Below are positions 10,219 through 12,591 of a DNA stretch of 64,000 bases, piece after piece. Below the pieces are notes generated by a model, which ran no database searches, was not told where the DNA came from, and saw only the letters and a list, made by a program, of their open reading frames with translations. This DNA is from an uncultured Bacilli bacterium (GTDB lineage Bacteria > Bacillota_I > Bacilli_A > RF39 > UBA660). The DNA lies in contig CAKOMK010000002.1 in NCBI GenBank assembly GCA_934096645.1, positions 55,383 to 119,382 of the forward strand. Reading direction: 5' to 3'. Within the stretch, counting starts at the first letter, position 1, and each line of letters opens with the position of its first letter. Both the position numbers and the translations under genes were made by a program.

Positions 10219-12591
10219 TTATTTTTTATCCATAGTTAATTTATTATCATATGAAACAGCATTAATAGCAGTATCAATAAAACTATTTATATTGTCTCTA
10301 TATAACATCAAAACTTTTTTAGTAGTTTCAATAACTTCTTGATTATCAATTCCTAAGAATTGTGCAATTGATTCAGTTGAAAAATATTTATCATCAACAT
10401 AACCAAGTTTTAAAGATATAATTATAGCTTCTTTAATAGATAGTGTTTTAAGCATTTGTTCAAAAGTAGGGGTTCTAAGTAATTTAAGTATACTAGAATA
10501 TTCTTCTTTAGAAAACGTTTTGCTTTCCTCTACTTCCTCTACTCTGTTTTCTTGATTTTCAACTTCTGGTAAAGAAACAGGTGTAGTAGTTATTTGCTCA
10601 TCATCTTTAGATGCGATTGACTCATTATTACTTGATTCAATAACGGCTTCATTATCTTTTATATTAGGTACAGTAACTGCTTCCCCTACTTCTTTAACAT
10701 CAGATAAATTTTCATCTTTTGCTTCAATAGAATCATCATGTGTAACTGGAACATTAGAATTTAATAAAATTTTTCTAAGTCTAGGTATAATTACAGCATA
10801 ATATAGATTCTTTTCTTTTTTATTTAATTCAGTAAACGTAGGATTTTCTAAATCACCACCATGTCTTTTCATTAAAATATCATAGTGGAAAGAAGATAAT
10901 TGTTTAATAGCCTCATCGACTTTTTCCTTTGGATAATCTCCCATCAATTCATATACAGTTTTACATCTTATTTTAGGTGCATTTTCTACACTTTTTGCAT
11001 TTTTTTCTTTTTTCATATCCGCTGAATCCTCCACTTTGTTTTTATCTTTTTTATTTACTTCATCATTATAAGATCTAGACCAATCACCAGTTTCTCTATA
11101 TCTTTGTCTAAAATACTCCAAATTTTCTAATGATTTATCAGGGTCTTCAGTAAATATTACTAATTTTTTGGCATAGACACTTCTTCTGATAATCATTAAT
11201 GCTTTAGTTTCAATTTGTCTAATTCTTTCACGCGTAACATTATATAATTGACCAATTTCTTCTAATGTCATAGGTTCATTACCATCAAGACCATATCTTT
11301 TAATTAAAACTTCTACAGCTTGTCGTGATAAATTACATTTTTCTAGTAAATCTTGAACTTGATCTTTTAAGTCTACAGAATCATAATCATCTTCTACATA
11401 AGATAAACTATTTTTATTTAAAACTAATAAATCTTTAACTTCAGTATCACTATCATCACTGACTTTCTCATTTAAACTTGTAATATCAAACTGTGATTCC
11501 TGTAAAATATTTACAGTATCTACTCTAACTCCCATTTTTTTAGCAATTTCTTCATTACTTGGGGTTCTATTTAATTCTATAGTTAAATCATTAATGGCTT
11601 TAATATACATATTTCTTTTTTCTAGAACGTGAACAGGAATTCTAATAGCTCTTCCTTTTTCATTAATTGCTCTATTTATATATCCCTTTATATATGCAAA
11701 AGCATAAGTAGAAAATTTCAAGTTTCTAGATAAATCGAAATATTCTATTGCTTTCATAAGTCCAATATTGCCTTCTTGAACTAAATCAAGCAATGACATA
11801 CCTCTATCTTGAAATTTTTTAGCAACATTAACTACTAATTTTAAATTACTTTGAATAAACAGTTCTTTCGCATTTTCATCTCCATTTTTAATTTTTAGTA
11901 ATAGGTCTCTTTCTTGTTCTGTAGTTAATTGCTTATAACTTCCAATTTCTCTCAAATATGTACTTAATATATCTCTTTCAAAATATTTATTATCTTTATC
12001 AATATCGAATTCATCTTCATTATTTTCTTCTTGAATCTCAATATTATTGACCATGCAATATACTTCTATAAAAGAAACTAAAGTATCATTATCAAATAAT
12101 TTTTCAGCTTTTCCAAATAATATTGGATTCTTATATTTTTTAAAAATAGTTTCAGTCATTAAATATAATGGATTATCATTTTTTATTAATTTAATAATCA
12201 TATCTGGTTCTAAAATATAATTATATTGTTTAAGAAAATCATCTAAAATTGAAAAATAACTAATACAATCATTAACATTAGATAAATTAGTAAATCTTTT
12301 CTTAGTAAAATTATTAATTATTATAACAACCTTTTCTAAATCATTTAAATCATTATATACTTTTCTATCAAATCTTTTTTTAAGTTTATTTTTAATAAAT
12401 TTTTTATAAGTTACACTTTCATCAAATTCACTAATAGATTTTTCTATCTCATCTAATATAATATCACTAAACTCTTCACTAGTAATATCTAAATAGTCAT
12501 ATGCATCATAAAATTTACTTATCAAAGGAAATATCATTTTATATATTTGAACTTTATTTAATTGTTTAATTCTTTTTAAATTCAAATCCAT
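10219..12591 (-). CDS. rpoD: RpoD-like sigma-70 factor (790 aa) with a long C-terminal extension holding two extra region-4-like copies
   Basis: Regions 1.2 to 4.2 at aa ~210-470 ([30 protein letters not shown]...[13 protein letters not shown]). Extra region-4-like segments at aa ~565-610 and ~716-766. AAGGAGG RBS. Confidence 0.8.
   Translation of the reverse strand: [790 protein letters not shown]

Follow-up and report, generated by a model that had tools for sequence, protein, structure and literature searches.

Introduction

In the RNA polymerase holoenzyme, region 4.2 of the sigma factor sits on the beta flap, beside upstream DNA and activators, and a protein tail that continues past region 4.2 leaves near upstream DNA. 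The partners of region 4 include the beta-flap tip helix, WhiB-family activators and lambda cI. To our knowledge, C-terminal additions behind region 4.2 have not been described for SigA-like sigma factors. Such an addition is the subject of this study: in a 64,000-nucleotide (nt) stretch of DNA from an uncultured Bacilli bacterium (contig CAKOMK010000002.1, positions 55,383 to 119,382; the whole stretch is called the window), a single intact open reading frame (ORF) at 10219-12591 on the minus strand encodes a SigA-like, here termed 'long', sigma factor of 790 amino acids (aa), of which ~320 aa extend past region 4.2.

The long sigma factor shares with the group 1/2 sigma-70 proteins (SigA/RpoD and primary-like paralogues) regions 1.2, 2, 3 and 4 in this order, a canonical region 4.2 and RpoD/SigA models as its best hidden Markov model (HMM) matches. 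It differs from them in that region 1.1 is missing and a 191-aa helical domain stands in its place, in the 320-aa extension, in model scores below cutoff, in the absence of dnaG synteny and in an altered tryptophan pair. Isolated sigma region 4 structures (6onu, 7kug, 1rio and 1ku7) superimpose on the model of the last module of the extension, module B, over 57-59 columns with a root-mean-square deviation (rmsd) of 1.0-1.7 Å and template modelling (TM) scores of 0.78-0.82, yet module B is a second sigma-4 fold in the same polypeptide and is devoid of the residues that read the -35 element. MzaA of the MZA anti-phage system (NF041931, 726 aa), also a long sigma-70 family protein, is among the top NCBIfam matches with 231 bits; however, the cutoff of this model is 800, only the sigma core aligns (model positions 442-716), and the extra sequence of MzaA is N-terminal rather than a C-terminal array derived from sigma-4.

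Domains fused behind sigma-4 are known from the extracytoplasmic function (ECF) sigma factors, in which such a domain modulates sigma activity and often stands in for a separate anti-sigma factor. The extensions described are SnoaL-like (ECF41, ECF56, ECF294 and ECF295), TPR (ECF42), Cys-rich (ECF238, ECF287 and ECF288) or transmembrane, and never sigma-4-derived (PMC7826278). While this arrangement is, in functional terms, the nearest analogue of a regulatory tail, ECF proteins have two-domain cores and unrelated extension folds, whereas here regions 1.2 and 3 are present, the core is SigA-like (SigE/K-like in the relative P0306) and the extension is itself derived from sigma-4, in tandem arrays.

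Full-text literature searches returned no published description of a sigma core joined to a sigma-4-derived tail, in agreement with a first-pass annotation of this DNA, made from the sequence alone, which was aware of no described bacterial sigma-70 with three tandem sigma-4 domains. Based on the analysis below we propose, with confidence only slightly better than even, that the protein is a paralogous SigA-like ('group-2-like') sigma factor with a built-in regulatory or tethering tail that does not read DNA.

Results

The extension is part of one gene and is built from pieces of sigma region 4

The gene and its parts are listed below by their coordinates in the window, with the basis of each assignment in parentheses.

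10219..12591, minus strand: whole gene, 'long' SigA-like sigma factor, 790 aa (ORF, Pfam, NCBIfam; 8 contigs)
12019..12591, minus strand: family-specific N-terminal helical domain, aa 1-191 (family conservation, AlphaFold2)
11176..11973, minus strand: sigma core, aa 207-472 (Pfam, E 5e-6 to 2e-15)
11875-11973, minus strand: region 1.2, aa 207-239 (Pfam PF00140)
11650-11856, minus strand: region 2, aa 246-314 (Pfam PF04542)
11425-11622, minus strand: region 3, aa 324-389 (Pfam PF04539)
11185-11331, minus strand: region 4, aa 421-469 (Pfam PF04545)
11080..11175, minus strand: conserved post-4.2 motif, aa 473-504, predicted helical (family alignment, AlphaFold2)
10966..11079, minus strand: linker 1, aa 505-542, Lys-rich, disordered, net charge +3 (predicted local distance difference test, pLDDT, <50; composition)
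10756..10965, minus strand: module A, aa 543-612, unit derived from region 4.1, one copy in the window (hhalign, AlphaFold2)
10516..10755, minus strand: linker 2, aa 613-692, 80 aa, Ser/Glu-rich, disordered, net charge -16 (AlphaFold2, composition)
10252..10515, minus strand: module B, aa 693-780, an 'LLRTPTF' helix ahead of a complete sigma-4-like fold (profiles, AlphaFold2, Foldseek)
10179..10213, minus strand: intrinsic terminator, a 14-bp stem (6 G-C pairs) and then a T-run, beginning 6 nt past the stop codon (sequence)

Each of the four Pfam domains of the core (PF00140, PF04542, PF04539 and PF04545) exceeds its gathering cutoff, bearing out the first-pass description of a region 2-3-4 core that ends in a canonical region 4.2, and the 790-aa ORF confirms that the protein runs on for ~320 aa beyond region 4. 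The annotation had named a separate downstream ORF joined by a sequencing frameshift as the finding that would undo its view, and chimeras do arise in assemblies of this gene family (the P0312 hybrid described below). Nevertheless, 8 independent contigs from different samples, all with a Zip transporter gene upstream, yield one and the same 790-aa product, the same architecture is found in more than 100 divergent proteins, and the frame is continuous, with the terminator directly after the stop codon. As the identical product, the shared layout of the relatives and the position of the terminator all speak for a single gene, the extension is part of one real gene and not a frameshift fusion; the 8 contigs and the family architecture refute a joining of two genes by frameshift or misassembly, to which we give a negligible probability.

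The relationship of the extension to region 4 is detectable at the profile level only. Taken literally, with Pfam HMMs, the refuting condition set in the first-pass annotation goes against the extension, as a Pfam search of the window extension gave no match at E<=10, and NCBIfam models gave only a weak match to the tail (E 0.009). Because of these results we built our own region-4 HMM from 93 ordinary RpoDs and ran it, with shuffle controls, on the tails of the family. Module B was matched over HMM positions 3-60 with up to 18.4 bits and module A over positions 2-27 only, with up to 21.2 bits; the maximum among 3,200 shuffled tails was 8.7 bits and reversed sequences scored below 0. No copies in the family score lower than those of the window, which reach 2.5 bits for module A and 8.8 bits for module B. 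Aligned by hhalign with region 4 of ordinary RpoDs, module B gave a probability of 96.6% (E 6e-10, 55 columns) and module A one of 95.3% (E 2e-8), the latter over 26 columns that comprise helix 4.1 and the RYG motif, as compared with 0.2% for the N-terminal domain, which served as a control. Against PDB sequences the module B profile found sigma region 4 of 1tty_A (E 3.3e-7) and of 1rio (E 7.5e-7), and the module A profile found the 4.1 helix only (E ~0.007).

Structure prediction, in which the tail and the N-terminal domain were each modelled separately, points in the same direction. The AlphaFold2 model of module B (pLDDT 63-88) places helices at extension residues 247-257, 267-274 and 278-308 in a sigma-4-like pattern, and its top Foldseek matches in the PDB are all sigma-A region 4, superimposing on 6onu_F over 57 columns (rmsd 1.0 Å, TM 0.78) and on 1rio_H with a TM score of 0.82. 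Owing to the small size of the domain, the Foldseek E-values remain weak (0.016-0.3). Module A (pLDDT 78-94) consists of a helix pair ending in 'RHG' ('RYG' in the family consensus), a loop and one long helix, with helices at extension residues 74-77, 83-91 and 95-104 and the long helix at 119-140. In relatives with many copies, each module A aligns only with the first ~22-29 positions of the Pfam models Sigma70_r4 or r4_2. By profile comparison and by its model, module B is thus a true homologue of sigma region 4 with the full sigma-4 fold, and module A is a half-unit from region 4.1 without a helix-turn-helix (HTH), as its last helix is continuous in the model and makes no helix-turn-helix turn. 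Of the two region-4-like segments reported initially, the second therefore stands by HMM, hhalign, PDB profile and Foldseek, but the first contributes only the 4.1 helix and RYG, and the picture of three tandem sigma-4 HTH domains was overstated.

The modules are embedded in less ordered sequence. Immediately after the core lies the post-4.2 motif, with the consensus EDPDKSLEN(I/L)E.FR..YRETG. AlphaFold2 predicts a helix for extension residues 12-29, the family alignment shows hardly any variation at P484 and N490, and the motif occurs together with the core in 60+ proteins. The linkers had been described as acidic and S/E-rich, which is correct for linker 2, whose length varies across the family, but not for linker 1, which is basic. 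Invariant residues within the modules are L565, K720, D733 and I748. The 'LLRTPTF' motif (LRTPTF at aa 704-709), just before the sigma-4-like part of module B, is nearly invariant as well and may serve for docking or be a target of modification.

The tail most likely does not read DNA

The first-pass annotation regarded the extra units as additional -35-binding modules that could alter promoter spacing or bind DNA independently. Module B does have a complete sigma-4 HTH fold, and by holoenzyme geometry the tail leaves the protein near upstream DNA. When module B is placed on sigma-70 numbering via the hhalign alignment, however, the five positions that contact the -35 element (R584, E585, R586, R588 and Q589) read N, Q, E, I and E in the window copy. 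Among 280 unique module B copies the commonest residue is Glu at the equivalents of 584 (33%), 585 (29%), 586 (65%) and 589 (39%) and Ile at that of 588 (31%). Conservation is seen at the buried positions of these copies, with I at 81%, V at 82%, L at 81% and Y at 64%. A minority of copies (13-24%) keep Arg at the equivalents of R584, R586 and R588, a fraction that may include genuine region 4 sequences from short cores picked up by the module B HMM. Moreover, module B has a net charge of -2 and lies beside a linker of net -16, module A lacks the HTH and aligns with region 4.1 only, and Pfam region 4 was not found in the window tail. Judged by these residues the tail most likely does not read DNA, and we consider an array of extra -35-type modules improbable.

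The extension defines a large family of sigma factors

With the full protein as query, 22 full-length relatives of 649-850 aa (31-99% identity) were found, all other matches being confined to the core, and the family alignment has a conserved order: N-terminal domain, core, post-4.2 motif, module A, variable linker and module B. A profile of the tail, searched against 1.84 billion proteins grouped into clusters at 50% identity, matched 1,617 cluster representatives at E<=1e-3 and 481 at E<=1e-30, in proteins of up to 1,862 aa with up to 19 matched stretches per protein. Local HMM annotation covered 171 of these matches, and the sigma core is present in 113 of them with the core-plus-extension layout; the first-pass annotation had proposed to look for the extension in RpoD orthologs of related low-GC genomes. 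The dominant architecture is an N-terminal domain, core, post-4.2 motif, 1-16 copies of module A and a terminal module B. In two examples, P0121 (1,415 aa) and P0122 (1,465 aa), Pfam identifies complete sigma factors followed by 10-11 copies of module A. Most of the core-less remainder of the 171 begin inside a module (residues 1-10), and the proteins that appear to be made of modules only are probably, for the most part, 5'-truncated gene calls; P0177, P0140 and P0125 remain as candidates.

The family stems from uncultured gut bacteria; its members are almost all known from metagenomes, and those few that have a name are labelled 'Bacilli bacterium' or 'Firmicutes bacterium'. In a scan of genome contigs with generic sigma patterns, L005 was the only family member among the matches listed. 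None of the viral contigs encodes the tail, and a phage origin was rejected on this ground.

Module A is a unit of ~75 aa that recurs with a period of ~79 aa, with 653 copies in 297 proteins and the consensus k.kTIYEYF..YsKEeVD.vlskLseEekeLI.lRYGeDL.nPv..kLtkeq..kFYg.lipKiKrlL. Adjacent copies are 43% identical, non-adjacent copies of the same protein 40% and copies of different proteins 32%. Repeats are thus more alike within than between proteins, which points to growth of the arrays by lineage-specific tandem expansion. The tail is nearly always fused to sigma cores, and these are not all of one class. Proteins of 486 aa, such as P0306 (L090:7001-8461), carry the same A+B tail (54% identity) on a core that is SigE/SigK-like (192 bits vs a cutoff of 252), and hence the tail is a portable, sigma-specific cassette that moved between sigma classes.

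These data also bear on the thought that the tail is evolutionary debris, fast-evolving, repeat-prone and largely functionless. The copy number of 1-16, the low complexity and variable length of the linkers and the degeneracy of the window copies, the greatest in the family, would suit such an origin. Yet the motifs of both modules, with their invariant residues, are conserved over 1,617 clusters less than 50% identical to one another, both modules fold confidently in AlphaFold2, and the cassette was retained after its transfer to a second sigma class, all of which makes debris a very unlikely explanation.

One variant lacks part of the core. P0387 (494 aa; 31 contigs, up to 234 kb) is a form of the 667-aa long sigma factor P0294 without residues 242-412 of the latter, i.e., region 2.4 through 4.2, with the junction at YATWW; it retains the N-terminal domain, regions 1.2 and 2.1-2.3 and the tail.

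The core is diverged and region 1.1 is replaced by a distinct domain

The first-pass annotation also suggested that this may be the only primary sigma factor of the organism, in which case the N-terminal domain and the tail would be lineage-specific decorations of SigA. In favor of a housekeeping role, region 4.2 has the canonical form, models of the RpoD/SigA type are without exception the best database matches, and PGAP (the Prokaryotic Genome Annotation Pipeline) names one relative RpoD/SigA. Every NCBIfam model of this type matches the 790-aa protein, but each far under its own cutoff (TIGR02393, 225 vs 354; NF006666, 228 vs 572; NF004208, 216 vs 555), so that the best scores of 225-231 bits stand against cutoffs of 354-572. 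There are relatives nearer to the cutoff that still fall short, such as P0020 with 312 vs 354 for TIGR02393. Region 2.3/2.4 is diverged, the window sequence differing in the family alignment from YATWWIRQAITRAIADQA. In region 2.3 it reads YAFAYIKG instead of the conserved 'YATWWIRQ', Trp-Trp being replaced by Ala-Tyr; other family members keep the second Trp of region 2.3, and the pair is lost in the subgroup to which the window protein belongs.

The region preceding the core does not correspond to region 1.1, a match that the first-pass annotation had proposed to check: PF03979 gave no match, and hhalign of the N-terminal domain against region 1.1 gave a probability of 0.5%. This value, together with the lack of a sigma-like fold match, led us to reject the domain as a form of region 1.1. 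The AlphaFold2 model is confident (pLDDT 87.9, predicted TM score 0.79) and all-helical with 12 helices, a fold search of the model against the PDB found no match (best E 1.5), and neither Pfam nor NCBIfam has a matching model. As modelled, the domain is a candidate for a new domain family specific to these sigma factors.

A canonical sigA exists beside the long sigma factor in a related lineage

In Bacillota, dnaG and sigA typically lie together in an operon. No dnaG adjoins the long sigma gene in any of 7 contexts, those of the window gene and of 6 other family members. Their neighbourhoods are housekeeping ones with one copy per contig, which speaks for a housekeeping role. Canonical dnaG-sigA-trmK loci do occur in low-GC relatives (L091, L093 and L094), in one of which such a locus exists beside a long sigma factor. 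The cores of the long sigma factors are 41-54% identical to the canonical SigAs of relatives, which are 73% identical to each other. With canonical sigA loci present and core identity this low, the long sigma factor is a paralogue in at least that lineage. We infer that it is a paralogue in the genome of the window too, which would then also have a canonical sigA. The window itself encodes a second, SigH-like sigma factor.

Two proteins, P0312 and P0355 (621 aa), are hybrids of the two types, and the same hybrid was assembled in at least 2 samples. P0312 has region 1.1, overlaps the C-terminus of DnaG and is 92% identical to P0294 from residue 91 on, with an unrelated N-terminus. A three-way DNA alignment of canonical sigA (L091:2311-3402), the hybrid (L089:971-2836) and the long sigma gene (L088:7001-9004) revealed a common tract of ~125 nt over region 2.2-2.4 with >=97% identity, the flanks of sigA and the long gene being ~65% identical; on its 5' side the hybrid is like sigA and on its 3' side like the long sigma gene. 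As the sequence type switches inside the ~125-nt tract, P0312 was rejected as proof that the housekeeping SigA bears the tail. The simplest reading is that two paralogues in one genome share a converted tract and that the hybrid is either an assembly path or a recombinant.

Three canonical sigA genes, each called as two ORFs, carry lesions within the same ~20 codons of region 2.3/2.4: a TGG to TAG change in L091 (2311-3402), a deletion of ~40 nt with a frameshift in L093 (6001-7039), and a CAA to TAA change inside a GATC motif in L094 (4001-5098). The rest of each gene is perfectly conserved. The short contigs L092, L095 and L096 end exactly at the lesion points, and L094 looks like an error-prone long-read assembly. 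These loci were picked from a list of truncated proteins, so the choice is biased. The lesions may have arisen as artefacts at the shared tract, or the gene may really be split or inactivated. A broader claim, that all 120 matches to the SigA N-terminus are truncated and sigA is broken clade-wide, was not accepted, as the truncation points are scattered and some sequences end in adapter; the list omitted P0312 and is not exhaustive.

If the lesions were real, canonical sigA would be split or inactivated at region 2.3/2.4 in a clade of uncultured low-GC gut Bacilli and the long paralogue would serve as the primary factor; its tail would represent a new class of sigma appendage, with the tandem modules acting as intramolecular sigma-4 mimics (a built-in anti-sigma, a beta-flap decoy or a multivalent tether) whose copy number of 1-16 would tune activity. 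We think this rather doubtful. Somewhat less so, though still unlikely, is that the long sigma factor is simply the sole group-1 sigma of its organism. For this account too the lesions in the sigA of three relatives would be welcome, but they may stem from assembly or basecalling at the shared tract, and the relatives have a separate, otherwise perfectly conserved dnaG-sigA-trmK locus; the absence of region 1.1 and of dnaG linkage, the sub-cutoff RpoD scores and the lost Trp-Trp pair add to the difficulty.

The locus and its surroundings

The window, with a G+C content of ~24%, carries tRNAs and a SAM riboswitch and is part of a chromosome. Upstream of the sigma gene lies a promoter-like site:

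12637..12665, minus strand: promoter-like site TTTACT-17-TATAAT with TG (extended -10), 45 nt 5' of the ATG (consensus match only)

A promoter scan of the region yielded 41 sites vs 39.4 in shuffled sequence, i.e., no excess. The Zip transporter ORF next to it (12671-13579, minus strand, 302 aa, TTG start) is over-extended: the protein predicted by gene callers has 249 aa (~12671-13420), and the ~50 codons at the start of the ORF (MLLLLELLLAF...) seem not to belong to the gene. Some strains carry an element of ~5 kb (L082:12804-17788 and L083:4679-9663), encoding a Rep_OBD/RepB_C replication protein and ~10 small ORFs, just downstream of the sigma gene terminator, where it is inserted, and the intergenic region 9694-10218 of the window is the empty site for it.

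Farther away, the SAM riboswitch (RF00162, 39338-39419, minus strand, 45.5 bits, barely over the gathering score) precedes a 345-aa ORF at 38228-39265. Positions 30001-38000 have a G+C content of ~30% vs ~24% elsewhere and hold long minus-strand ORFs of 803, 531 and 822 aa, probably highly conserved genes. Two further window proteins that were looked up are not on record. The SigH-like sigma factor, of 203 aa, is encoded at 57388-57999 on the minus strand (NF006147, 110 bits vs a cutoff of 212; TIGR02859, 95 bits).

Discussion

The analysis shows how the domains are arranged, that the modules are homologous to sigma-4 and have lost its contact residues, how large the family is, that the tail is portable between sigma cores and that the long sigma factor is a paralogue in a related lineage. 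From there we propose the following for a paralogous sigma factor with a tail that does not read DNA. The sigma-2/3/4 core, with its canonical region 4.2 and altered region 2.3/2.4, would bind RNA polymerase and read promoters, and the family-specific N-terminal helical domain would take the place of region 1.1. The tail would be a flexible one, made up of pieces of sigma region 4 that were duplicated and have degenerated, the half-unit A and the terminal full fold B, joined by disordered linkers of which one is strongly acidic. Its modules would have kept the hydrophobic core of sigma-4 and the 4.1 helix while losing the residues that read the -35 element, and it would act via protein contacts, be it as a mimic of sigma-4 docked on the polymerase or on partners of sigma-4, as a regulator or as a tether. 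Docking of the tail on the core or the polymerase is a predicted contact that could follow from the mimic model. By analogy with the fused domains of ECF sigma factors, the tail is probably a protein-interaction or regulatory appendage. The functional part of the first-pass annotation, with extra -35 readers and a sole primary sigma factor, is thus mostly not supported.

Several points weigh against this proposal. Some of the members that retain Arg at the contact positions of module B might still touch DNA. The seven family members lie in chromosomal neighbourhoods that lack synteny and give no contextual pointer to a partner of the tail. Coexistence with a canonical sigA was seen in a relative 35% identical to the window protein and not in the genome of the window, and should the sigA lesions be real, the long sigma factor could be the working primary factor.

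The tail family is large and undescribed, and the feature is real and reproducible. As the whole family bears arrays of sigma-4-derived modules and the cassette is found on a sporulation-type sigma core as well, the pattern points to a general, sigma-specific function that lies outside Pfam, NCBIfam and the searched literature. The N-terminal domain and module A, both of which fold confidently in AlphaFold2, are candidates for new domain-family definitions. If the modules do mimic sigma-4, these sigma factors would carry within their own polypeptide a self-contained control of the contacts between sigma and core or between sigma and activators.

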